Positions 3,454 to 64,000 of a stretch of 64,000 nt of DNA are shown one piece after another; within the stretch, counting starts at the first letter, position 1, and the number at the start of each line of letters is the position of its first letter. Source of the DNA: a virus. Position numbers and translations under genes: made by a program. The DNA is taken from IMG/VR virus record IMGVR_UViG_3300009157_000016, positions 44,378 to 108,377 of that record. One strand, written 5' to 3'. Under the pieces are notes generated by a model. It made no database searches, was not told the DNA's origin, and worked only from the letters and a program-made list of their open reading frames with translations.

Positions 3454-3968
3454 AGGCGCACGCGATCACGCAGCGGCCGGCACTTGAGAAAATCATCCCA
3501 AAAGATGACTTGCAGATTGAGTTGTGGGTAGATGGCTTCAATGCGGAAGATGCCCAGCAAATGGAAGCCCTTCTTGGTGCTGAGGACCAGTATGGGGAAA
3601 TTGTTCTGGCGGGCAATGAGGAACGGTATCTTGTCGAACTTCTCAGCATCCCGGCACAAGGCAAGCCAGAAGTTGACAAGGTTCCCCCTGCGCTTAATCA
3701 GCGCATCAATGTCCAAGTTCTTGAAATGCTTTGAGTCGACGAGGAAGTTGTCGACGAATTTCATGCCGGCTGGATCAATGGCGCTTATGTCACCGGCTTG
3801 CGCAGAGAGGATTGTGCCGGACTTGAAGGCAATGCTGGCCCGGCCTCCTGACATGGCGGTGCGCCAGAATATGTCCTCACGCTTGCCGCGCGTGACCCAT
3901 TTGGATAGCTCACGGCAACAGTAGCGTTCGAACGTAGCGCCCTTTTTCTGACTACCGCCCTTCCTCAT
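3450..3968 (-). CDS. PD-(D/E)XK nuclease, putative Holliday junction resolvase
   Basis: KKGATFER, GDI, LVDSKH pattern; recombination gene context. Confidence 0.7.
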   Translation of the reverse strand: MRKGGSQKKGATFERYCCRELSKWVTRGKREDIFWRTAMSGGRASIAFKSGTILSAQAGDISAIDPAGMKFVDNFLVDSKHFKNLDIDALIKRRGNLVNFWLALCRDAEKFDKIPFLIARQNNFPILVLSTKKGFHLLGIFRIEAIYPQLNLQVIFWDDFLKCRPLRDRVRL

Positions 3969-9171: not shown

Positions 9172-11889
9172 TTAGATACCCTGAGAATCGAATGACTTGT
9201 AGTTCTCGCTCCAGTACTTGCCCACGGGCTCAAGCTTGTTCCACTTCTTGCCAATGGACACTTCCACGCTCATAGGCACGTTGATGAAATCATACGGGAG
9301 CAGAAGCAGTTCGCGTGCCAAGTAGCTGATCTCATCTGCCAGTATGCTGTCCTTGTCAGGCATCATGAACGTCAGGTCGTCATGGATTTGCATGATGGGA
9401 TGACGGTAGCGGATCTTATGCTTGAGAGAGCTGCGGCTGATCCTCACCATGCCGTCGTTCACAATGTCAGCCGCCAAGGACTGGATGGGGCTGTTGTACA
9501 GTTCGTGTCGGCTCATGGGATAGTAGCGGCGGCGGCCGGTGAACGTTTCCACGTAACCCACGTCGTAGTAGGTCCGCATGGTCTCGTCCTGCCACTCCTT
9601 GAGGCCGGAGAACGTTTCCCAAAACTCCTCAAAGATGTCCTGCGCCACGTTGTCAGGCATGGCCTCGCCAAGGAAGGGTAGGAAGTAGCTGGCAACCGAC
9701 GGCTCAGCCGCACCAAAGATAACAGGGAACACCATCTTGTTCTTGACCAGTGAGCGCGCACCCTTCAATGCGTCCTCGTCATTCTTCCCCTGCTTCTCCT
9801 TAAAGTAGTCGAACAGCCACGGCCAGCGCTTGCCAATTTTGAGCGCCCATTCCTTGTGAACGTCGTATTCCTTCCACGTAGCACCGACCATGTTCTTGTC
9901 ATTGCAGAACATGCAGGCGGTACACCACTCCAACTGCCCAAAGTCCACGCTAACGAAGACGTGGCCTTCCAGCGCTTCAACTTGCTCCCTGATCCAAGCG
10001 TCCTTGTGCTTGGGCCAGTTCTGCATGTTGGGGTCGTCCGAACTGAGTCGGGCGGTGGTGGTGAAGGTCGTGTTGAAGGAAGTGTGGAGCTTGCCGTCGG
10101 GAAAGATGAGCGTGCCGTCAGGCAGGATCATCTGGTCGACGTACGTGCTCTTCATCTTCACTTTGTTGCGCAGCTTGATAATCAGCGGCGCAAGCGGATG
10201 GTCTATCTTCTCAAGGACGGCTTTGTCAACCTTCTCAGTGACTTTATCTGAGTCCTTTTTGTCCTTGACGAAGACCTCAGGCCGCTTTAGGTAGTCACGG
10301 AATATGGTAAGGACCTGCGGCTGCGACTCAGGATTGAATTCCCCTTTATGCTCACTGACATACTTCTTGACCACTTTGAGGCCAAGGATGTCATTTACGA
10401 TACCCTTGACTTCGTCTTCCAGCTTGCCTTGCAGGCGCTTGGCGGTCTTCTGGTTGATGGGGACGCCGTAGTGCTGCATGAGAGCCACCGCGCCCTGACG
10501 CGGCATGGCCATCTCATAGACATGCTCCTGCCTGATGTCCCTGATAAGCTTGTCCTGATGGAACCAGAGTTGCAGCGTGGCGCGCGTGTCAGCGCCATTG
10601 TAGATGAGGACCTGATCGTAGGGGCTTTTGCGCAGGTCCTTCTTGTCCAGCTTGAACTGGCTCTTGATGTCTATGCCGAAGTGCTGGCGTGTGAGGAAGC
10701 CTAGCTTTTGGTATTGCGAAGCGTGATCGTCCTGACCCTTCTCGTTTGGCCCTTTGCGGCCGTCAAGGATGTAGGCTTGGACCATTGTGTCTTCCCACGA
10801 GTTGTGGTGAACAATGTCTTCGCCAAAGTAGAAGATGTACCACTCCATCTCAAATGGAGAGTTGTGCGCAATCTTGGGGATGTCACGGCGGCGTATCAAC
10901 GCCTCAAGCCGGTCAAGGATCTTCTGCCGCTGCGCTTTGGACCAGTTGGCCTTGGGATGGTCGACTCCGAACGAAAACGTTCTTAGTTTTAGGTGCCTGT
11001 CATAGTAGGAAAAGGCGGCCGTCAGAATGATAGCGCCGGTGCGGTAGGGTCTGAGAGGCCACGTCTCAAGGTCGGTGGCGTAGCAGGCAACTCCTCTCTC
11101 AATGTCGTCGAACTCCCGCATCAGGGAGTCAAAGTCATCCTCGGGGCGCTCACCGCTGTAGGTGTTGACGTCCTTCTTGACAGTCTGCTGAGTCCATACT
11201 TCCGGCCACGGCGGATCGTCGTCCATGAACCGCCATATCTGCTCAAAGTCCAGCTTCCACGCGCCACCTACTCGGCCGTTCAGCGGGCGTCTGTCATCCT
11301 TGGCCGACCGCAGGACGTAGGCAGGGTGATTGGTGGGGAAGAACCAGCACTCATGCTTTCCAATGGTGACCGCAAAGAAGCGGCCCCGCATACCTTGCAT
11401 GTCTTTCGTGCCAAGCATCCACTGCAAGGCTGGGATGCCAAGGCCCACGATCAGCTTGGGGGCAGCTTCCTCAATGGCGGCGGTGACGTAGCCGCGACAG
11501 CACTCCTGCTCAATCCACTCCGGCGGCCGTATCTTACCCTCAGCGTTTTTGGGGAAGTGCCTGACTGTGTTCCCGTAACCGCAGTTGTCATAGTATTCGT
11601 TGGGGATCATGGACTTGAGAAGCTTGCCTGACTTCCCAATGAACGGTACGCCCTCCTGTTCCTCCTGCGGACCCGGTGCCTCACCTAGGAAGAAAATGTC
11701 GCATCTGCGTGGTACGTCTTCACGGACCTCATTGCCGGCACGTGAGAGGGGGCAAGCGCGACAGCCTAGGCGTTGCAGCGTTTCCGAGCTTTGCTTCGTT
11801 TGCTGGCCTACCGAAGACCGGCGGGGGCCGGTTTTGTCGGCGCCCTTTTTCGCGTTCGCCTTATCTGCTTTCTGGTAGAAGAAGCCCAT
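9172..11889 (-). CDS. family A DNA polymerase with N-terminal family-4 UDG-like domain and 3'-5' exonuclease
   Basis: CRACPL..GEAPG..EG.PFIGKSG..HPAYVLR; DLET, AHN, YNGAD; TARLSSDDPNMQN, DFGQLE, TFTGRRR, NSPIQS, IHDDL. Confidence 0.93.
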   Translation of the reverse strand: MGFFYQKADKANAKKGADKTGPRRSSVGQQTKQSSETLQRLGCRACPLSRAGNEVREDVPRRCDIFFLGEAPGPQEEQEGVPFIGKSGKLLKSMIPNEYYDNCGYGNTVRHFPKNAEGKIRPPEWIEQECCRGYVTAAIEEAAPKLIVGLGIPALQWMLGTKDMQGMRGRFFAVTIGKHECWFFPTNHPAYVLRSAKDDRRPLNGRVGGAWKLDFEQIWRFMDDDPPWPEVWTQQTVKKDVNTYSGERPEDDFDSLMREFDDIERGVACYATDLETWPLRPYRTGAIILTAAFSYYDRHLKLRTFSFGVDHPKANWSKAQRQKILDRLEALIRRRDIPKIAHNSPFEMEWYIFYFGEDIVHHNSWEDTMVQAYILDGRKGPNEKGQDDHASQYQKLGFLTRQHFGIDIKSQFKLDKKDLRKSPYDQVLIYNGADTRATLQLWFHQDKLIRDIRQEHVYEMAMPRQGAVALMQHYGVPINQKTAKRLQGKLEDEVKGIVNDILGLKVVKKYVSEHKGEFNPESQPQVLTIFRDYLKRPEVFVKDKKDSDKVTEKVDKAVLEKIDHPLAPLIIKLRNKVKMKSTYVDQMILPDGTLIFPDGKLHTSFNTTFTTTARLSSDDPNMQNWPKHKDAWIREQVEALEGHVFVSVDFGQLEWCTACMFCNDKNMVGATWKEYDVHKEWALKIGKRWPWLFDYFKEKQGKNDEDALKGARSLVKNKMVFPVIFGAAEPSVASYFLPFLGEAMPDNVAQDIFEEFWETFSGLKEWQDETMRTYYDVGYVETFTGRRRYYPMSRHELYNSPIQSLAADIVNDGMVRISRSSLKHKIRYRHPIMQIHDDLTFMMPDKDSILADEISYLARELLLLPYDFINVPMSVEVSIGKKWNKLEPVGKYWSENYKSFDSQGI

Positions 11890-39148: not shown

Positions 39149-39223
39149 GTGTCCTCCCTTCACAGCAGCCGCAGCACTCCTTCGTGATACGGCAGCACAT
39201 CCACTTGCAATCAGAAAACCTAG

Positions 39224-39451
39224 TCATGTCTCCCTCACCTGTCCTTTGACGTATCGCACCACGTCAACGGCGCGCACAACGAAGACGCTCTCAACGCCGT
39301 CGATGAGACTCATGGTATTGGCGGCCTCTAGGGCCGCCTTCTCCTCGTAGTGGATGAGACCAAGCGGCGAGCACGCCGCCTGTATCTCGGCCAAGTGACG
39401 CTTGCCGCGTACATGAAACGTAGGCTTGAGCAGGAACGTATCCTGTCCCAT
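39224..39451 (-). CDS. hypothetical protein
   Basis: Packed ORF. Confidence 0.55.
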   Translation of the reverse strand: MGQDTFLLKPTFHVRGKRHLAEIQAACSPLGLIHYEEKAALEAANTMSLIDGVESVFVVRAVDVVRYVKGQVRET

Positions 39452-52749: not shown

Positions 52750-52777
52750 AGAGGGGGCATGAGGCCCCCTCTGTTTT
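52750..52777. terminator. possible bidirectional terminator hairpin
   Basis: agagggggc/gccccctct stem with T-rich flanks. Confidence 0.45.
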
Positions 52778-53259
52778 CAGCCCTTCCTTGCGAAGGGATG
52801 TGCGCCTATGCTGACCACGTTGGCGGCGTTGTCAGCATCATGCGGAGCGGAAAGCATTTCCAGATCGTGCAGAACGGTTGCACGCTCCTCACCGGACAGC
52901 GTCTTGCCGCGACTGTAGAGGCGGCGCAGTTGCTTGCGGCGCTCAGTCTCGTCCATATCGTGGACGGCGACCAGAGACCACGTTGCCTGCTTGCGCCGCC
53001 AGACGAGGTTTGGGTAGGCTTCCATGACACGCTTCCGCTTTGAGCAGAAACGCTGGAAGTTGCCGTTCACCGTCCAGACCGCCCATATGGGCTCGGAACC
53101 GCCGCTGAGGACGCACGTGTAGTGAGTCGCTTTCAGCCGCCCTTCCTTGTTGATCGTGCAGAGCGCATAGACCCCACGAAACGCCATCACGGCGTCAAGC
53201 GGAGGTGCTTGGAACTCAACTGGCCTTTCGGTTGCTCGGAAATGTTCTCTTTCAGCCAT
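52777..53259 (-). CDS. hypothetical protein
   Basis: CAGCAGGAGAG leader/RBS. Confidence 0.65.
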   Translation of the reverse strand: MAEREHFRATERPVEFQAPPLDAVMAFRGVYALCTINKEGRLKATHYTCVLSGGSEPIWAVWTVNGNFQRFCSKRKRVMEAYPNLVWRRKQATWSLVAVHDMDETERRKQLRRLYSRGKTLSGEERATVLHDLEMLSAPHDADNAANVVSIGAHPFARKG

Positions 53260-53290
53260 GTTCTGGCTCTCCTGCTGATTGGTTAGGGTT

Positions 53291-54051: not shown

Positions 54052-54446
54052 AGCGCCCTCGCCTTCTGCGCACGAATGATCTCACCTATAGTCACCACGT
54101 TCTCGTCGAGGAACGACGGGTTGTGGTGCCTGAGGAAGTCAGACGTATTTTGCAGGACATGCTCTTGCTGATCCGACCCTTTGAGGGTCAGTTGGAAGTC
54201 AGCGACCCACCGCTGGCGGGATAGCTGCTTTTTGGCGTTCATGTGCAGTGCAGCGCCGGCGCAAAAGGAAGCGTTCAGCGAGTACTGTGCATAAACGTCG
54301 CCCGGCTCCACCGTCATGTGACATGGGAACTCAATGGCTCCTATGGCCTCAAGCATGTCGTTGGGAGACCAAGGACCCAACCATCCCCGCATTGAATCCT
54401 TGCGAAAAGGACACTCAATGCAGGGCTTCGTGAGTTTGCATTTCAT
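54048..54446 (-). CDS. Cys-rich hypothetical protein (PCxxCPFR..CH..CAG)
   Basis: KPCIECPFRKDS, FPCH, FCAGA. Confidence 0.7.
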   Translation of the reverse strand: MKCKLTKPCIECPFRKDSMRGWLGPWSPNDMLEAIGAIEFPCHMTVEPGDVYAQYSLNASFCAGAALHMNAKKQLSRQRWVADFQLTLKGSDQQEHVLQNTSDFLRHHNPSFLDENVVTIGEIIRAQKARAL

Positions 54447-54851
54447 CTAGAGTTTCACCCTCCTTTTCCTGCTGTGGTTTTCTAGTCTAACACGCTTTTT
54501 AGAAGCGGGTTGCGGTTCCTCTGGTCGCTCACGCGCAGCAATTTTCTTGTTCCACGGCTTCTTGATGAAGTCGGGAACGTCCTTTGCGTCAGAGGATTCG
54601 AAACGCACTCTATGTTTCGGAGGGACCTTCCAGTCCACGTCCACGCCTAAATCCTGTAGCAGGCGGCGCATGGCGCGGTAGTCACGCAGCATTGCCGCGA
54701 AGGTGTCCCGGTTGAAACCGAACACGTCCTTGCGGATGAGCACGTTCCCTTTGTTGATGTCGTGCTTCTGCGCCTCATGGAAGGCGACCAGATCTTCCGC
54801 GTTCGTCAGATCGTCTTTCATCAGGCTCAGTTGAAGCTCTTCCCTGCTCAT
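54447..54851 (-). CDS. hypothetical protein with three RV[RK][LF] motifs
   Basis: KHRVRFE, KKRVRLE, KRRVKL-stop; AGGAG RBS. Confidence 0.7.
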   Translation of the reverse strand: MSREELQLSLMKDDLTNAEDLVAFHEAQKHDINKGNVLIRKDVFGFNRDTFAAMLRDYRAMRRLLQDLGVDVDWKVPPKHRVRFESSDAKDVPDFIKKPWNKKIAARERPEEPQPASKKRVRLENHSRKRRVKL

Positions 54852-54873
54852 GCGATAGCTCCTTTAGCGAATG

Positions 54874-54908
54874 AAAAGACCGCGCCGGGGGCTTATCCCG
54901 GCACGGTC
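54874..54908 (-). terminator. probable intrinsic terminator
   Basis: Minus strand gaccgtgccggg..cccggcgcggtc followed by TTTT. Confidence 0.55.
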
Positions 54909-55835: not shown

Positions 55836-55871
55836 AAATAAAAAAGCCCCCCGCCGTGAGGCGAGGGGCTT
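55836..55871 (-). terminator. intrinsic terminator
   Basis: Minus-strand GC-rich hairpin (aagcccc..ggggctt) followed by TTTTTTATTT. Confidence 0.8.
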
Positions 55872-55907
55872 CCACTTCGGAGGGTTGGGGCTGGAGCCCT
55901 CCTAGGT

Positions 55908-56654
55908 TCACTTGGACTTGGGCCTCCCTGAAAGGAAGTAGCGGGTGATCTCCCGCTTGCCCAAGCCCTTCTCCTTCTTTTTGCGAACGGAGCAGCCGCG
56001 CTGCTCCAGCTCGACGAGAACGTTGAGTTGCGAACTGTCCAACGCCTTCTTGACTTCCAAGAGCGTCGCGCCCTTAGCGCCGGCATACATTGCCGCCGCA
56101 CGGGACTTGAGCGAGCCCTTCTTGAAGCCGTAGGCGTCTTTCTCGACGCTGGAGGCCTTGGCTTTCGCCGGCTCAGCCTTGCCCTTGGCGGGCGCGGCCT
56201 TGCCCGGTGCGGCCTTGCCCGGTGCTTTGCCCTTGGCGGGCGCTGGCGCGGCCTTGGCGGGCGTTGCCTTGCCCTTGGCGGGCGCTGGCGCGGCCTTGCC
56301 CTTGGCCGGCGCTTGCTCAGCCTTGCGCATGGGGATGACCTTGGCGCTTGGCTTGGCGGCCGGCTTGGCTTCCTTCTTCACCGGGGCTTGCTTCGCCTCG
56401 GTGGGCGGCAGCCCTTCGGCAGCACGCTTTTTGGCGCGCTCCTCGTCGGCGGCCTTCTGTTGGGCCGGTGTGCCCGAACGGAGGGGCGGCTCCTTTTTGA
56501 CGGGCGCAACCGCTTCTGACGTTTCCGTCTTGGGGGTTGGCTCGGCACCGTTCACTTTCTTTTCGGGGACCGCCCCGGTGTCGGTGTTCGCCACTTTGTT
56601 CTCCCTTCTGAGGAACGCTGGTATTTCCAGGTCCTTTCCTGCTATGATGTTCAT
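55908..56654 (-). CDS. histone H1-like PAK-repeat DNA-binding protein with C-terminal wHTH-like domain
   Basis: DLEIPAFLRR N-terminus; PAKGKAAPA repeats; KDAYGFKKGS..GATLLEVK..QLNVL. Confidence 0.75.
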   Translation of the reverse strand: MNIIAGKDLEIPAFLRRENKVANTDTGAVPEKKVNGAEPTPKTETSEAVAPVKKEPPLRSGTPAQQKAADEERAKKRAAEGLPPTEAKQAPVKKEAKPAAKPSAKVIPMRKAEQAPAKGKAAPAPAKGKATPAKAAPAPAKGKAPGKAAPGKAAPAKGKAEPAKAKASSVEKDAYGFKKGSLKSRAAAMYAGAKGATLLEVKKALDSSQLNVLVELEQRGCSVRKKKEKGLGKREITRYFLSGRPKSK

Positions 56655-56735
56655 GCTGTGTAACTCTCCCGATTCGGCTACTCGACTTGAGAGGCCGGCT
56701 CAACCGGCGTGCTAGACGCCGGCTGTGCGAGACCC

Positions 56736-57092
56736 TCACGTTTCACTAGGCGGCTGGCGCTCAGTGATGACCGTGAAATGGTTGCTCTCTTTTTCGAACC
56801 GCCCCACTCGCGGTCCAAGGTAAGCACGAACCTTGTCAGTGTCCAGTACAAGTCTTTCGCACCATGTCAAGGTGCATTGCCAGTACTGGCCACGGACGAG
56901 CTTGCCCGTGTAACCCGTGGGATCAATCTGCGTGGCGTTTCTGACCTCTTCACCGTGACGCCGTGCCAACTCCGCCTTGAGTTTTTCCTCGGCTTCCTCG
57001 TGGTCCTTGCGGATCTCACGAGCCTTGCCAATCATGTCAACAAGATCACGTTGGCTCAGGCGTCTCAGGTTTATCTTTCTGTCCTCGCTCAT
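56736..57092 (-). CDS. hypothetical protein
   Basis: ATGA-coupled; LVDMIG..LDTDKVR pattern. Confidence 0.65.
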   Translation of the reverse strand: MSEDRKINLRRLSQRDLVDMIGKAREIRKDHEEAEEKLKAELARRHGEEVRNATQIDPTGYTGKLVRGQYWQCTLTWCERLVLDTDKVRAYLGPRVGRFEKESNHFTVITERQPPSET

Positions 57093-57598
57093 GCTTTTTT
57101 GTCCTCATTCAGGCGGCGCATGAGTCGCGCCGCTTCCCGTCGTAGAAATTCCTCAACTAGGTCCTGCACGTGCTTGACCATGTCGCCTTGGTCAGGAGCC
57201 CACTTCCAATGGGTCACCTGTTCGGAGTCGACAAGGTGTGGCCGTGAGATTTGGCCCTTCAAGATCAGTTGCTCGACCTCAGCCGGCGAATTGTGGAACT
57301 TGATAATGCCGAACAACGCCTCAAAGAACTCAGTGGGTACCGGTACGGTTTCCCCACGTCTATCAAAGCCGTAGATGACCGCGTCGTTCGCATATAGGTT
57401 GTTTTTGACTGAGAAGTAGTGCTGCTTCGCAGGGTCACGAAGAAGACCAAACTCATCCACAATGATCGCATAGCCGACAGCTAGCTTCCCGAAGTCAGCC
57501 TTGTCTGCATGGCCTAAGCTGAGCCAGAGTTCTTTCGGGTCGTTGGCCTGCACTGCTTCAATGGTGCGGCGCGCAGGACGTACCACCGCGAACTGCAT
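57089..57598 (-). CDS. hypothetical protein
   Basis: IIVDEFGL..YF..LYANDAVIYG; AAGGAG RBS. Confidence 0.7.
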   Translation of the reverse strand: MQFAVVRPARRTIEAVQANDPKELWLSLGHADKADFGKLAVGYAIIVDEFGLLRDPAKQHYFSVKNNLYANDAVIYGFDRRGETVPVPTEFFEALFGIIKFHNSPAEVEQLILKGQISRPHLVDSEQVTHWKWAPDQGDMVKHVQDLVEEFLRREAARLMRRLNEDKKA

Positions 57599-57604
57599 GA
57601 CTCT

Positions 57605-57990
57605 CTCCTTCCTCAAAGCTGAGGGGGGCGCTCCAGCAGGGAAAACGCCCCCCTCCCCCCGACCCGCAGGTCGAGGAAATGTGGGAGGACGGTGTCACAG
57701 CAGGTAACCACCGCCCTCCCCTCCGGCCGGGCCGTGCGCGAGCAACGGCAAAGAAACCGCGCACGACACTTCGCGCCGGAGTTTACGTGTGCTTCATGAG
57801 CACCATGTTCTAGATTCGAAACCGTATCTAGAAAGAGCTGCTCACTTCGTGGAAGCGAAGGTGATGCAGAGTTTGCTGTACCCTCTGCACCACCCCCGCA
57901 TGAGGGATCACCTAGAACCGGCAGCGGTTCTAGATGTCCAGCCAATGTGGCCCCAAGCCACACGCTTGATCCCCAATGCAGCTTCCATCA
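57605..57990 (-). ncRNA. putative structured non-coding RNA(s), multi-hairpin
   Basis: About 390 nt without a credible ORF, almost fully paired into stems; A-C mismatches on + become G-U pairs on -. Confidence 0.6.
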
Positions 57991-58449
57991 CTACCCTCCC
58001 TTAGTGACCTCCATAAAGTTCGTGATGACCTCCCGGATGCCGGGCTCGGCTTGTTCCAGCATCAGGCGTTTGGTATGCCATTCGCCTTCGTTGGAGTAGT
58101 CCGCCCAACACATGTCGGTGTAGTTGTGCGGGGAGAACATACCGAGGACCAAGCCGCCGTCGGCTATGATCTCCAGCATGTAGTTGCCCTCCTTGCCGGC
58201 TTCGTCATCACCGGCGTCGCTGGAGTCGGTGAGCATAAGCTGCGCGTAGCAAGTTGCGCCGTCCTCACGCTCAATCTTGGCAACGGCACCGTAGTTGTCG
58301 CCTGACTGATCCAGCTCCGCCCTGATGCCCCAAGGGTCAAGCGCCCCGTTCAGGAGCGTTTGCATCCACCCCTTGTCCTTCTTCCACCGACTCTCGTAAG
58401 CCGCCCAAACCTCCGGCTCGGGGGAGCTTGTTTCCGTCGTCGTTTCCAT
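57991..58449 (-). CDS. hypothetical protein
   Basis: ADGG..LG..SPHNYTDMCW motif. Confidence 0.7.
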   Translation of the reverse strand: METTTETSSPEPEVWAAYESRWKKDKGWMQTLLNGALDPWGIRAELDQSGDNYGAVAKIEREDGATCYAQLMLTDSSDAGDDEAGKEGNYMLEIIADGGLVLGMFSPHNYTDMCWADYSNEGEWHTKRLMLEQAEPGIREVITNFMEVTKGG

Positions 58450-58615
58450 TGTCTCTGTCCTCTGTCATAAACTTTGGAAGTGGCTTCATTTCAGGAAGAT
58501 CGTAGCCGTCCTCAAGCGCCTTGATGGCGACATTAGTAGCCGCCAAGCGCTTTACCAAGTCCTGCTTTTTCACGCGAAGGATGGCTAGGATCTCTTCAAT
58601 TTCACCATTGATCAA
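58337..58615 (-). CDS. hypothetical protein
   Basis: TTG start after CACAGACAGGAGG leader; 3' overlap with the next gene. Confidence 0.5.
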   Translation of the reverse strand: MINGEIEEILAILRVKKQDLVKRLAATNVAIKALEDGYDLPEMKPLPKFMTEDRDNGNDDGNKLPRAGGLGGLRESVEEGQGVDANAPERGA

Positions 58616-58642
58616 TGTTCGTTCCTCCTGTCTGTGTTCTTG

Positions 58643-58686
58643 TGTAACACACTGCTACCGCCCGAAGGCGGTAGTGTCTGCTCACA
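58643..58686 (-). promoter_or_regulatory. intergenic hairpin, RNase III-like family
   Basis: TGAGCA-gaca-ctaccgcc-TTCG-ggcggtag-cagtg-tgtta. Confidence 0.55.
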
Positions 58687-59290
58687 AGTCGAATTGCTGC
58701 AACCGTTTGACGAACTGACGCTGCACCTTCTTGAAGGTCTTCGGGTCATCTGAATAGTGCGGCAGCTTCTGTTGAGTCCACCACGAATACGTCCACTGGC
58801 TGGTTTTCTCGTCGTACTTGTCCTCCATGTCCACCCAAATGGGGTGTTCCTTGGGAATGCCGAAGGGCTTAAGGTAGGCCCGCATGTTGCCGCATCTAGC
58901 GTTGTCCAGCGCTTCAATGCGGCTGCGGATCTTTTTGACTTCCTCGCCGTTGTGAATGTCGTCAGGCCCCAACTCCTCGTCGAAGTTCATCTTGAGGGTC
59001 ATGGCCATGACCGCGCCGCCTTCGCAGACGTAGCAGACCTTCCTCGGCTCTTTCCTCGGCTCTTCATTGTCCTCGCCGGTCTCGTATTCATGGCGGATCG
59101 TGTGCCACGTGCTCATGTCGATCTTGTAGATCTTCGAGCGCTCAACCTTCTTGATGTCCTCAAGGGCAATCAGGATGAGCTCGCTCGGCTTCGCGGCAAG
59201 GATCTTGTCGCCGCCGGTCTTGTCGAAGTTGGCTGGTGGACTGGGCTTCTTGCTGGGCTGACCTGTAGGTTCCGTTCCCATATCACTCAT
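58682..59290 (-). CDS. hypothetical protein
   Basis: KPSELILIALED..IDMSTWH..CYVCEGGAVMA; CAGGAGAG RBS. Confidence 0.7.
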   Translation of the reverse strand: MSDMGTEPTGQPSKKPSPPANFDKTGGDKILAAKPSELILIALEDIKKVERSKIYKIDMSTWHTIRHEYETGEDNEEPRKEPRKVCYVCEGGAVMAMTLKMNFDEELGPDDIHNGEEVKKIRSRIEALDNARCGNMRAYLKPFGIPKEHPIWVDMEDKYDEKTSQWTYSWWTQQKLPHYSDDPKTFKKVQRQFVKRLQQFDL

Positions 59291-59312
59291 GTTCTCTCTC
59301 CTGCTTGTGCTT

Positions 59313-59585: not shown

Positions 59586-60877
59586 CAGGTGTAGTCCACG
59601 AAGACCGTGTCCCCGAACGGTGCCTTGGAAGCCAGCCCCGCATAGCGGCGCTTGTCTCCATGCACCGCCCAAAGGACAGGGCAGCCGGGGTCCAGCCCAA
59701 AGTCCAGCGTGAGAAGGTCAGTAAAGAATATGACGCCTGCTACGTCGTCAACGTTCTGTTCCAACCATTCCCACACCGCCTTGAAGTGGGTCCCGCCGCC
59801 GCCCTTGGGATTCAGTTTCAGTTCGTCGTAGGCTTCGAAGATGTCAACGCCCTGAAACTTCGTGTCGGTGTAGATCACGTAGACCTCGTCCGCCACGCCT
59901 TCATCCACCATCGCCTTAATCTCGGTGGCCAGCTCGCTCCACAAGCGCGGAGTCATGCTGCCCGAGGTGTCGCCGATGACAGCGAGACGGTGCGGCCGGT
60001 CACTGACCTTCCCCGGCAAGTAGATCTTGCGGGGCAGGTAACGCTTGTCCGGTCGTGACCATGATGTATCCTTGCGCATTGAGTTCTGCGCCCAGATGCG
60101 TGTCACGTCCCGCCAGTCAATGCGCGGCTCAGTCAACGTTTTGTAGATGCGTTCCAGCTCGCCGGGAACGGAGCCCGCATTCGCCGCCTTGGCAACTGCC
60201 ATAGCGGCGCGCACGTTCTTGTCCCACTCGTCGGAAGCCTCCTTGTTGCCGTTGACGTCGGTGTGATCCGTCGCGTCAAGAACTTCGCCGGCCCCACCGG
60301 GGTCGTGTTCCTGCTGCGGCGTGCGTCCACCCTGACCTTGACCGCCTTCGCCGTCGCCGTCAGATTCGCCTTCGCCGTCATCACCCTTTTCGTCAGGCTT
60401 TCCGCCACCGCCGCCCTTCTTCGGGGCGGTCTCGTCACCACCCTGTTCGGGCGGCTTCGGCTTGGATTGCTCGTCTTGTTCGTCGAGCATTTCGTAGACC
60501 TGCTCGGCGCTCATGCCAAGATACTTGGCGTCAGTCACCGAGCCCGGTGGAAGCTCGAAGCCGGCTGAGAGCACGTCGTGATTGATGACGTACGCGCAGG
60601 CCAAGCTCCAGCGGCGTGGATCACGCCACTTGCGACGCATGGGATGCTTGTAGACGCAGCCCGTGACGGCCTGCGCCCATGAGCCCATGCGTTGTCCTTC
60701 CGTCAGGCCGAGGATGTAATCGGCGTTGTAGAAGTATGATTTGCCCTCGAAAGCCGTGGAAGCCGCCGCTGGCGACTCCTTCGGCTCCAAGTTGAGGGCA
60801 AGGCAGGAATAGAAGCGCTGCCGATATATCATCTGCGTGCGCGCCTTTATCACTGCCTTTGCAGCTTCTTGGTTCAT
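59585..60877 (-). CDS. DUF2201-type metallopeptidase-like/vWA domain protein
   Basis: GMSAEQVYE, IDWR, SWSRPDKR..YLPG, MIDAS DTSGS, GGGGTHF, FFTD. Confidence 0.85.
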   Translation of the reverse strand: MNQEAAKAVIKARTQMIYRQRFYSCLALNLEPKESPAAASTAFEGKSYFYNADYILGLTEGQRMGSWAQAVTGCVYKHPMRRKWRDPRRWSLACAYVINHDVLSAGFELPPGSVTDAKYLGMSAEQVYEMLDEQDEQSKPKPPEQGGDETAPKKGGGGGKPDEKGDDGEGESDGDGEGGQGQGGRTPQQEHDPGGAGEVLDATDHTDVNGNKEASDEWDKNVRAAMAVAKAANAGSVPGELERIYKTLTEPRIDWRDVTRIWAQNSMRKDTSWSRPDKRYLPRKIYLPGKVSDRPHRLAVIGDTSGSMTPRLWSELATEIKAMVDEGVADEVYVIYTDTKFQGVDIFEAYDELKLNPKGGGGTHFKAVWEWLEQNVDDVAGVIFFTDLLTLDFGLDPGCPVLWAVHGDKRRYAGLASKAPFGDTVFVDYT

Positions 60878-60905
60878 GTTCTCTCTCCTGCTGTGTGAAA
60901 TGCTC

Positions 60906-61706: not shown

Positions 61707-62723
61707 TCACAGTTCGAACGACTGGTTGGCCTGCTTGAACGAGATGTAGGTCGGCGTGTCGCAGAGGGTGTTGTCCCTGCGGCAAGCGTCCATCACGGTC
61801 ACCGTTTCCAGTTCCTTGCCCAACCTGTCCGCATAGGTCATGATGGGCTTGAAATTCTGGCGGGTGGCGTGACGTGCGATGGCTCCTGCCACCGCATAGC
61901 GCCCCGCCGCCGTGTCAGGCACTTTCGCGCCCTTCGGGTCGGTGGTGATGTCCTTCAAGGAAGGGAGGTCGCTGAACGCCTCAATGAAGGTGCTCAGTTC
62001 GTTCTTGGGGCCTTCGCCCACAAGCCCTTCGATGTTCCGGTCACGCCGCCGCACGTCCTTGATCTGAACGTACTTGGCGCACTCCTCCCACGCACGGGGC
62101 GTGGGGAAGGCTTTCAGGTCGGTGCCCTCCATCGAGTGGATGAGCTTCGGCCTGAACCGGATGAACGCAGGCATGATGGCCGGGATGTGGTCCTGATCGT
62201 AGGCCCACTGGATCCACGTGTCAGGATCCGCTTCAATCTCAAGGTGAGCGAAGCGGTTTGCCAACGCCGTCGGCATTTTCTGCGCGGCGGCGCGGTCACT
62301 CTGCCTGTTGCCGGCTGCCGCGATGCGCCAGCCCGGCGGCAGGATGTAGTCGCCAACCCTGCGGTTGCCGAACGCATCCTTGAGCACGAGGCCGAAGCAC
62401 GCGACCTGCGTGGCGAGTTGCGCGGCGTTCAGTTCATCAAGGAACAGAACACCCTGCTTCCCATCACGCTTCTCGTTGGGCAGCTCGTCGGGCGGCAACC
62501 ATTTGGTCACTCCCTTTTTGCTGTCCAAGTCCGGCAGGCCCCTGAGGTCCACCGACTCCCGCAACGCTGCGCGGAAGTCGATGAATCCCCAGCCCTTGCG
62601 GCGGGCCTTGATCCGGTCTGCGAGGCCTTTGGACTTGCCCACGCCCGGCGGTCCCCAAAAGAAAAACGGGGTGTCGCCGTCAATGTAGTCGTCCGCACTG
62701 TCTAAAGCTTCTGCTAGGTTCAT
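61707..62723 (-). CDS. MoxR-like AAA+ ATPase
   Basis: WGPPGVGKS, DLRGLP, LFLDELN, AAGNR, ALANRF, FPTPRAW; partner of the vWA protein. Confidence 0.9.
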   Translation of the reverse strand: MNLAEALDSADDYIDGDTPFFFWGPPGVGKSKGLADRIKARRKGWGFIDFRAALRESVDLRGLPDLDSKKGVTKWLPPDELPNEKRDGKQGVLFLDELNAAQLATQVACFGLVLKDAFGNRRVGDYILPPGWRIAAAGNRQSDRAAAQKMPTALANRFAHLEIEADPDTWIQWAYDQDHIPAIMPAFIRFRPKLIHSMEGTDLKAFPTPRAWEECAKYVQIKDVRRRDRNIEGLVGEGPKNELSTFIEAFSDLPSLKDITTDPKGAKVPDTAAGRYAVAGAIARHATRQNFKPIMTYADRLGKELETVTVMDACRRDNTLCDTPTYISFKQANQSFEL

Positions 62724-62754
62724 TGTTCTCACTCCTGCTGTGTTGACGCTCAAC

Positions 62755-63007: not shown

Positions 63008-63358
63008 TCAGGTATCCGCAGTCTGCTTGTCGAACTCTGCCTTGGCTGCCGGCGTCAAGGTGCCAACGCGCACATGGGAGTCACCCCGGCCGTAGTTGAG
63101 ACGCTTGCCGGTGTCCACGAGCACGCCTTCCTTGACGAGGCACTCAAAGGAGCCTTCGTACTGGTTGGCGTTCGCAATGAACACTTCTTCGGGCAGCGGC
63201 CGGTAGCCGTAGTCGAAGAGGCACACCGTTGGCTTGGACAGCGGCTCAGGAAACTCAACGCCGACGAGCTGGATAGCTATGCTCTGGTCGGCGAAGTATC
63301 TGCTGAACTGCACCTCGGCCTTTTCGTCGATGTATTTGTTCTTGAAATGGATCTGCAT
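63008..63358 (-). CDS. hypothetical protein
   Basis: RYFADQSIAIQL..EP..PTVCL..LVKEGVL.DTG; CACAGCAGGAG leader. Confidence 0.7.
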   Translation of the reverse strand: MQIHFKNKYIDEKAEVQFSRYFADQSIAIQLVGVEFPEPLSKPTVCLFDYGYRPLPEEVFIANANQYEGSFECLVKEGVLVDTGKRLNYGRGDSHVRVGTLTPAAKAEFDKQTADT

Positions 63359-63458
63359 GTTCCTCTCCTGCTGTGGAGCCCCATGATAGGACACCGGTAA
63401 CGTCCGCTGGACGTTACCGCTGGCCTACTGTAGCCTTCGCTGCCTTTCAGAGGAGAAC

Positions 63459-63755: not shown

Positions 63756-64000
63756 AACGTTCCCTAGGCACGATTCGAAACCGTGCCTAGGGAAACGCCG
63801 TAGCTTTACCGGCCGAGTGCGCCCAAGCGAGGCGGGGCGTATGATTCCGCCTTGCCTGACCGCCAGCCGAAGGAAGACCAGCGTTCACCCATCGGGACGC
63901 CCTTCGTGCTGTTCGTCATCAAGGTCACGCTGCGCTCCGTGCTCAGCTCCCGGTCATTGCACATGATGGTGACATCCTCTTGTGTGCAAGGCCAGCATTG

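Follow-up and report, generated by a model that had tools for sequence, protein, structure and literature searches.

A hairpin array in the early operon of an uncharacterised phage lineage, with loops complementary to a leader shared by early genes

Why would a phage early operon hold, in front of one of its genes, a non-coding array of hairpins in which two loops are complementary to the leader that many of its other early genes share? We addressed this question in the window, the whole 64,000-nucleotide stretch of DNA that was analysed, which comprises bases 44378–108377 of a 108,377-bp IMG/VR phage record with a GC content of 58%. Positions below are those of the window unless called genome positions, and features lie on the minus strand unless stated otherwise. 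The phage has PHROG matches to a family-A DNA polymerase, a clamp, helicases, a UvsX-like recombinase, terminase and portal. In protein searches of GenBank phages the best identity to cultured phages was ~36–37% for TerL and 27% for the VWA protein, and with TerL only ~36% identical to its closest cultured counterparts the phage belongs to an uncharacterised lineage. Minus-strand genes running from ~64000 down to ~49700 are the continuation of a leftward early operon, which has a sigma-70-like promoter (TTGACA-17-TAACGT) at genome position ~4540; joining the two parts presumes that the ends of the record meet, with the operon leaving at the record's start and resuming at its end. The array lies ~11 kb downstream of this early promoter.

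The shared leader is marked by the word CACAGCAGG, of which the 108,377-bp record has 11 minus-strand copies (genome positions 321, 789, 1320, 1893, 2554, 2569 and 2903; window positions 54468, 60887, 62734 and 63367) and one plus-strand copy, the loop of the hairpin that we call H7. The window thus holds four minus-strand copies and the one plus-strand copy, against a shuffle mean of 0.75, with 0 of 100 shuffles reaching 5; the 7-mer CAGCAGG by itself is not enriched (14 observed vs 14 expected). All 11 minus-strand copies lie directly 5′ of the SD/ATG of an early gene. Motif position and the ranking of loop targets identify the leaders CACAGCAGGAGAGGAACAUG of a 116-aa early gene (63356–63375), CACAGCAGGAGUGAGAACAAUG of the MoxR-like ATPase gene (62721–62742) and CACAGCAGGAGAGAGAACAUG of the DUF2201/VWA gene (60875–60895). 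The sequence-only reading had placed the motif at or just before the SD of four genes, which holds for those starting at 63358, 62723 and 60877; for the 132-aa gene starting at 54446 (leader at 54444–54476), however, the motif is followed by a separate SD and is 22 nt away from the ATG. Partial leaders, at 53271 and 59298, are represented by AUCAGCAGGAGAGCCAGAACAUG, a CAGCAGG match in front of a 160-aa gene (53257–53277), and by AGCAGGAGAGAGAACAUG, which lacks CAC, in front of the gene starting at 59290 (59288–59305).

Every sense copy of CACAGCAGG falls within an 85-nt cassette. A long hairpin, in which an internal loop separates an AGCGC/GUGCU lower stem from an upper stem that varies, comes right after the upstream stop codon, followed by a second hairpin (GAAGUGCU...AGCAYUUC) and then by CACAGCAGGAGAGAGAACAUG. 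The long-hairpin architecture was seen in 13 of 15 folded stretches, the exceptions being those of the genes at 56654 and 54446. The long 5′ leader of the operon (genome ~3750–3767) holds CUGUUCUCCUCCUCCUGC, complementary both to the cassette ribosome-binding site (GCAGGAG and GAGAACA) and to the CAGGAGG of the first gene itself, making it a second anti-RBS element in the early operon.

The array itself occupies part of a 392-nt gap (57599–57990) between a 152-aa gene upstream (58449–57991) and a 169-aa gene downstream (57598–57089). Neither flanking protein has a Pfam match; the 169-aa protein has no PHROG match either, and the ESM Atlas offers a mere lead to DUF3846. The Atlas record of the 152-aa protein begins at residue 29, a methionine, and the start of its gene (57991–58449) may therefore be 58365 and not 58449. 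The gap folds into about nine hairpins, with a minimum free energy (MFE) of −217 kcal/mol compared with −162 ± 6 kcal/mol for shuffles (z −9.2). When the two strands were folded, the minus (sense) strand reached −215 kcal/mol with 16 G-U pairs, and the plus strand −177 kcal/mol with 5. The sense-strand advantage of 38 kcal/mol, together with the 16 G-U pairs, argues that selection acted on the structure in RNA, or else in single-stranded nucleic acid of the minus strand. A coding explanation was discarded, as the 116-codon ORF that spans the gap (57963–57613) has a codon score of −0.32, like out-of-frame sequence, against +0.17 to +0.36 for its neighbours; the minus-strand-specific, non-coding structure proposed from the letters alone is therefore borne out. 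No tRNA or tmRNA was found in the gap, and the Rfam search that had been suggested gave no family at gathering score in the window, the best permissive match being unrelated (E 0.51). Most other gaps in the operon are likewise structured.

Read from its 5′ end, the gap opens with a multibranch structure of three hairpins (57848–57990) directly after the stop codon of the 152-aa gene. The third of these (57897–57857) has an open 11-nt loop, GGUACAGCAAA, with a leader-like ACAGCA at 57879–57874 that could kiss the loop of H7. There follows a long hairpin of the cassette type (57796–57845), with a GUGAGCA/UGCUCAU lower stem, an internal loop and a UCUAGAU/AUCUAGA upper stem. It has the features that define the intergenic long-hairpin family, namely a (G)AGCxC/GUGCU lower stem, an internal loop, a variable upper stem of 8–12 bp and a position directly after a stop codon, and its place in this family makes it a plausible processing point. 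By analogy with the early RNase III sites of T7, it is a possible site of RNase III-like cleavage. The sequence GAUUCGAAACCG(U) (on the minus strand ACGGUUUCGAAUC) sits at the tips of this hairpin and of the one at 63794–63760, and partly at 54595 (sites 54595–54613, 57813–57831 and 63772–63790); it resembles the tRNA T-loop GGUUCGAAUC with one extra U, and no further copies turned up in a scan of viral contigs.

Downstream of the 57845–57796 hairpin, ~190 nt comprising the hairpins H6 to H9 replace the usual ~40-nt leader, which gives the array the look of an insertion within a cassette leader. The gap ends in AGCUUUGAGGAAGGAGAGAGUCAUG, in which the SD and spacer of a cassette are kept and CACAGC is missing; the translation initiation region of the 169-aa gene accordingly retains AGGAGAGAG-N-CAUG, with its SD AAGGAG at 57610–57605 and its ATG at 57598 (SD and gene 57089–57610), and the array lies within its 5′ UTR. 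H6 (57721–57781) is a long, imperfect, GC-rich hairpin without an anti-leader motif. H7 (57683–57720) has a 12-bp stem with one G-U pair (arms 57720–57709 and 57694–57683) and a 14-nt loop, GUUACCUGCUGUGA, at 57708–57695, with CCUGCUGUG at 57704–57696; it carries CCUGCUGUGA, the exact complement of the 10-nt UCACAGCAGG. H9 (57621–57655) has a 10-bp GC stem (arms 57655–57646 and 57630–57621) and a 15-nt loop, UUUUCCCUGCUGGAG, at 57645–57631, with CCUGCUG at 57640–57634, and carries UUUUCCCUGCUG. The sequences quoted in the sequence-only reading, and these two hairpins, were all found where it had put them. The small hairpin that it described between them is also present (H8, 57656–57677), but most of its CCUGC is taken up by the stem and a UGCG tetraloop caps it, which makes it a structural element and not a third anti-leader loop. 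The motif is thereby confined to two of the four hairpins, H7 and H9, both of which fall outside the long-hairpin cassette architecture.

In the MFE structure both of these loops shrink to pentaloops through UUAC/GUGA and UCC/GGA pairing, leaving 5 nt open in each, and the two tips become identical, with a CUGCU pentaloop and a C-G closing pair on weak upper stems of 3–4 bp. When H7 and H9 are aligned from the top, as read from the sequence, the tip is retained, as is an A-U pair at position 9, and the stems differ by two double compensatory changes (U-A to C-G and C-G to G-C) and by one change from G-U to G-C. H7 and H9 are probably duplicates in which stem and tip have been kept. The 5′ arms of H7 to H9 are runs of G (GGGUCGGGGGGAGGGGGGCG and GGAGGGGAGGGCGG; 57646–57664 and 57709–57725) that conform to a G-quadruplex pattern, and a quadruplex at these arms would compete with the hairpins.

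The complementarity between the loops and the leader is real, as the sequence-only reading had claimed. The H7 loop complements (U)CACAGCAGG, and together with its first stem base gives an 11-nt match to the leader of the gene at genome position 2893. The H9 loop complements CAGCAGG-A-GAGAG, pairing with CAGCAGG and, after a one-base bulge, with GAGAG via UUUUC, in a duplex of 12 bp with two G-U pairs that covers the whole SD. When loops alone were submitted to RNAduplex and 169 gene starts (165 called and 4 added by hand) were ranked as targets of H7, 11 of the top 12 were cassette leaders; with stem nucleotides included, the targets were not separated. The predicted H7 duplexes have energies of −15.3 to −17.2 kcal/mol against a loop-opening cost of 2.9 kcal/mol, and the H9 duplex −15.3 kcal/mol against 5.9 kcal/mol. 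Opening the leader costs a further 1.4–5.7 kcal/mol at CACAGCAGG and 1.7–6.1 kcal/mol at the 13-nt H9 site, and the net predicted energy is therefore about −8 to −12 kcal/mol for H7 and a weak −4 to −7 kcal/mol for H9.

How often such a match would arise by chance was estimated by comparing shuffled leaders with all hairpin tips in the sense-strand gaps of the genome, with definitions that were chosen after seeing the data; the test was limited to tips because an antisense model needs its match in a hairpin tip. Genome-wide, the chance of a 9-mer match in a tip was 0.045–0.095 and that of a 10-mer 0.019. For a 9-mer in one tip and a 7-mer in a second tip within that gap the chance was 0.0028, falling to 0.0014 if the same core was demanded. 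The pattern is thus unlikely to be fortuitous, at ~0.02–0.09 for the best loop alone and ~0.001–0.003 for both loops if they are independent; as H7 and H9 are probably duplicates, their loops would not count as two independent observations, and the true figure lies between these single- and double-loop bounds. With the loop restriction lifted, an antisense 9-mer was found in the sense-strand gaps in 54% of trials and a 9-mer with a nearby 7-mer in 12%, neither of which is significant. One other antisense 10-mer, CUGCUGUGAA at 39168, lies in an unstructured ORF for a Cys-rich protein and is a chance occurrence. This small ORF (MTRFSDCKWMCCRITKECCGCCEG..., 39160–39226) overlaps the start of the next gene and had been missed by our crude gene caller.

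Comparison with relatives separates what is old in this system from what is private to the phage. No relatives carrying the gap came from scans of viral contigs with the 169-aa, 152-aa, VWA and TerL proteins singly; matches in a scan of the same contigs with a VWA alignment were at most 32% identical, scans of genome contigs were empty, GenBank phages gave no DNA match, and neither the leader nor the GAUUCGAAACCGU loop, used as DNA patterns, brought up any relatives. A metagenome scan found one 2.4-kb contig, 99.7% identical, in which the gap is unchanged and which is uninformative for this reason. Its 99.7% identity extends over 2,012 bp and is gone below 56235 (56235–56238), within a 248-aa gene, a break that marks a recombination or mosaic boundary. 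Closer protein relatives comprise a protein 72% identical to the 169-aa protein (P0002), encoded on a 1,755-bp Logan contig, and a pair on a 39.5-kb Logan contig (P0004 and P0098) with 62% identity in VWA and 77% in TerL.

A TerL alignment led to two further phages, G001 (102,569 bp with direct terminal repeats, TerL 61%) and L091 (TerL 60%). In G001, 15 cassettes share this architecture and carry the leader AUUUAAACAGGAGRNAGAACNAUG, and the leader of L091 is UUGAAACAGGAGAAGGACCAUG. The combination of long hairpin, second hairpin (GAAGUACU/AGUACUUC), private leader and SD is therefore conserved at ~60% TerL identity, and the intergenic long-hairpin family is present in all three phages. The word in front of CAGGAG differs by lineage, being CACAG in the phage of our record, UUUAAA in G001 and GAAA in L091. 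As the relatives' leaders share CAGGAG...GAAC...AUG, this frame is family-wide, whereas the match of H7 is to CACAG, a word private to the phage of the record. G001 is syntenic through the ATPase and VWA genes and then homologues of the genes at 56654 and 55462; neither G001 nor L091 has a homologue of either gene flanking the gap, or an array matching its own leader. Given that G001 is without the flanking genes and the array, the array is lineage-specific, and the private word and the loops co-occur. In the G001 gap syntenic to the array (~10946–10973), a GC-rich hairpin has a loop, AUAGUUC, antisense to GAACUAU of that phage's own leader, but this lead is weak, as a 7-mer match could well be chance.

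The manner in which the array is transcribed bears directly on what it may be. No sigma-70-like promoter was found in 56500–59000, and the sole terminator-like match in the gap is weak. H9 was considered as an intrinsic terminator and rejected: it is followed by AGCUUUG, with the GC/UUU junction adjoining H9 within the 5′ UTR, and has no U tract, unlike the intrinsic terminator at 55842–55873, 1.7 kb downstream of the array, which has a 14-bp GC stem and UUUUUUAUUU with a U6 tract. With neither its own promoter nor a terminator of the kind seen in this genome, a stand-alone sRNA gene is unlikely, and the discrete sRNA envisaged by the sequence-only reading, whose motif in any case is in just two hairpins, was not upheld. 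The RNA would be part of the early transcript, possibly trimmed at the 57796–57845 hairpin. Several terminators (55842–55873, ~54860–54900 centred near 54880, and 52752–52769 near 52760) lie inside the leftward gene array with the next start codon within 25–40 nt (39 nt from the 55873–55842 terminator to the next ATG), and no promoter is visible between them and those start codons, which suggests partial read-through or antitermination. The alternative also raised beforehand, in which UUCCUC pairs with GAGGAA to mask the adjoining SD in cis, is disfavoured; its predicted pair probability is 0.0005 and its cost +5 kcal/mol, with the SD 56–87% unpaired.

Our best explanation, which we rate at somewhat short of an even chance, is that the array (57621–57720) serves as an anti-leader RNA within the early transcript, pairing with early leaders and lowering their translation. 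In this model, the module would sit inside the long leftward transcript, between the 57796–57845 hairpin and the SD of the 169-aa gene. Its CUGCU tips would nucleate pairing with the single-stranded private leader, (U)CACAGCAGGAG(AGAG), that at least 11 early genes carry, after which the weak upper stems would open, resulting in a 10-bp H7 duplex just 5′ of and into the SD or a 12-bp H9 duplex across the whole SD, with binding of the 30S subunit lowered, message decay triggered, or both. Lying ~11 kb from its promoter, the array would appear minutes after the first early mRNAs, and the effect would be to shut the early genes off after a delay or to control their dosage, with an RNA in the part that RegA and RegB play in T4. 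The accumulation of the RNA, processed or not, its pairing in vivo and the sign of its effect are all things that we infer.

The anti-leader reading draws together the non-coding fold (z −9.2) with its 38 kcal/mol and 16-G-U-pair sense-strand bias, the observation that the sole plus-strand CACAGCAGG in 108 kb is the H7 loop while 11 minus-strand copies precede early SD/ATGs, and the presence in H9 of the same C-CUGCU-G core, with a flank that extends pairing over the SD. It is also favoured by H7 and H9 stems that have diverged through compensatory changes while keeping the tip, by cassette leaders forming 11 of the 12 best H7 targets at a net energy of about −8 to −12 kcal/mol, by chance values of 0.019 for the 10-mer tip and 0.0014 for two tips with the same core, by a match of H7 to precisely the lineage-specific CACAG part of the leader (G001 and L091 having UUUAAA-CAGGAG and GAAA-CAGGAG), and by the disfavoured cis masking. 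Against this, the array has neither its own promoter nor a terminator, the MFE leaves 5 nt open per loop, H9 would not count as independent evidence if it is a duplicate of H7, and its net energy of −4 to −7 kcal/mol is weak. Without loop restriction the probability of the match is 0.12–0.54, and a comparable chance 10-mer occurs elsewhere. The stoichiometry is poor, with two loops facing at least 9 leaders on the same transcript, and G001 has cassettes but no array matching its own leader.

In a rival reading, the array would be purely a structured 5′ UTR of the 169-aa gene acting in cis, either as a 5′ stabiliser after processing at 57796–57845 or as an insulator between translation units, with the leader complementarity a coincidence or the relic of an inverted leader. 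The array stands between cassette hairpin and SD, in a leader's place, without its own promoter or terminator; most other operon gaps are structured too, and a single 9- to 10-mer tip match has a 2–9% chance genome-wide. We nevertheless regard this reading as rather unlikely, as the SD of the 169-aa gene is predicted to be open (masking helix 0.0005) with no cis switch visible, normal cassettes here need just ~40 nt, and the recurrence of the same tip on diverged stems and the leader pairing of both flanks are left unexplained. An identical pentaloop and closing pair on two different stems could also mark the twin hairpins as recognition elements for a protein or RNA polymerase, with the tip C-CUGCU-G bound by a phage or host factor, either as a coat-protein-like repressor site or for antitermination of the lambda nut/boxB or HK022 put type past the terminators at 55873–55842, ~54880 and ~52760. 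The array's position 1.7 kb upstream of the strongest terminator in the scanned region fits such a role, as does the fact that the genes after 55873–55842 have no room for a promoter in the 39 nt from terminator to ATG. However, known nut and put sites are close to their promoters, while the array is ~11 kb downstream of its own; no candidate binder was identified, the neighbouring proteins being without an RNA-binding family, and the 10-nt leader complementarity would be left as a coincidence (p ~0.02–0.09), all of which makes this explanation improbable. Least probable by far is an element acting as DNA, such as a replication origin, packaging signal or recombination hotspot; the gap is among the larger ones in the genome and contains palindromes and G runs, but it has no iterons or AT-rich stretch, and the 16 G-U pairs and 38 kcal/mol asymmetry point to sense-strand RNA.

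Among known systems, repression by the c4 RNA of phages P1 and P7 operates through pairing over the ribosome-binding region, the mode proposed for the array. The c4 RNA of the immI operon is processed from a transcript and represses Ant synthesis (Citron & Schuster 1992, cited in PMC8546580). Like c4, the array would be a phage RNA encoded within one transcription unit with its targets, whose strand and early region it shares, and it may likewise be processed out of the transcript. c4 has one target operon and a function in temperate-phage immunity, while the array faces at least 11 dispersed early leaders in an apparently lytic phage, and the array has no sequence or Rfam similarity to c4. 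The cuckoo/CcsR RNAs of Alphaproteobacteria (RSs0680, alpha-r14, NfeR1) consist of 2–4 adjacent hairpins with CCUCCUCCC in their loops (PMC4615179). They derive from UTRs, 3′ in Rhodobacter and 5′ in S. meliloti, and mature by processing (PMC4615179, PMC8034643), and CcsR is linked with a DUF1127 (CcaF1) gene in the same transcript (PMC8034643). Maturation of this family from a UTR is by RNase E. The array resembles them in its adjacent hairpins with variable stems, its shared pyrimidine-rich loop that would pair with the RBS, its UTR location and its lack of a promoter. It differs in carrying CCUGCUG(UG) in place of CCUCCUCCC (loops GUUACCUGCUGUGA and UUUUCCCUGCUGGAG), in only two of four hairpins, in having neither a DUF1127 neighbour nor an Rfam match, and in being phage-encoded and aimed at a private leader, not at a generic SD. 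The array would thus work most like cuckoo/CcsR, yet lacks each membership feature that we looked at, and the kinship with cuckoo/alpha-r14 proposed in the sequence-only reading does not stand.

Staphylococcus aureus RNAIII offers a further parallel. This C-rich-loop sRNA starts loop-to-RBS pairing from several loops with the motif UCCC (PMC4615179); it is like the proposed anti-leader RNA in having the same short motif in several loops and acting on several mRNAs, and unlike it in its motif, its host context and its host-gene targets. In T4, RegA is a translational repressor and RegB an SD-cleaving endoribonuclease (PMC3014915), and both resemble the role proposed for the array in coordinating post-transcriptional shut-off of early genes via a shared feature of their translation initiation regions. 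RegA and RegB are proteins, whereas the reader of the leader proposed here would be an RNA, although the reader in this phage may instead be a protein. In the literature that we searched, no phage RNA was described as acting on a leader common to the phage's own early genes.

What is known of post-transcriptional control in phage early genes concerns mainly proteins, T4 RegA and RegB among them, and known phage antisense RNAs, P1 c4 for example, act on single targets. If the anti-leader reading is true, an RNA with many targets, recognising the private leader by which a phage's own early genes are marked, would add a regulatory layer that is new, and would supply an orthogonal leader/anti-leader pair for synthetic biology. 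A broader idea, which we hold as doubtful, is that a lytic phage times immediate-early shut-off by RNA in place of a protein, using transcription distance as its clock and a private word that evolves in each lineage. Should the array prove to be merely a structured UTR, the analysis still maps the cassette architecture, comprising long hairpin, second hairpin and private leader, of a new phage lineage.
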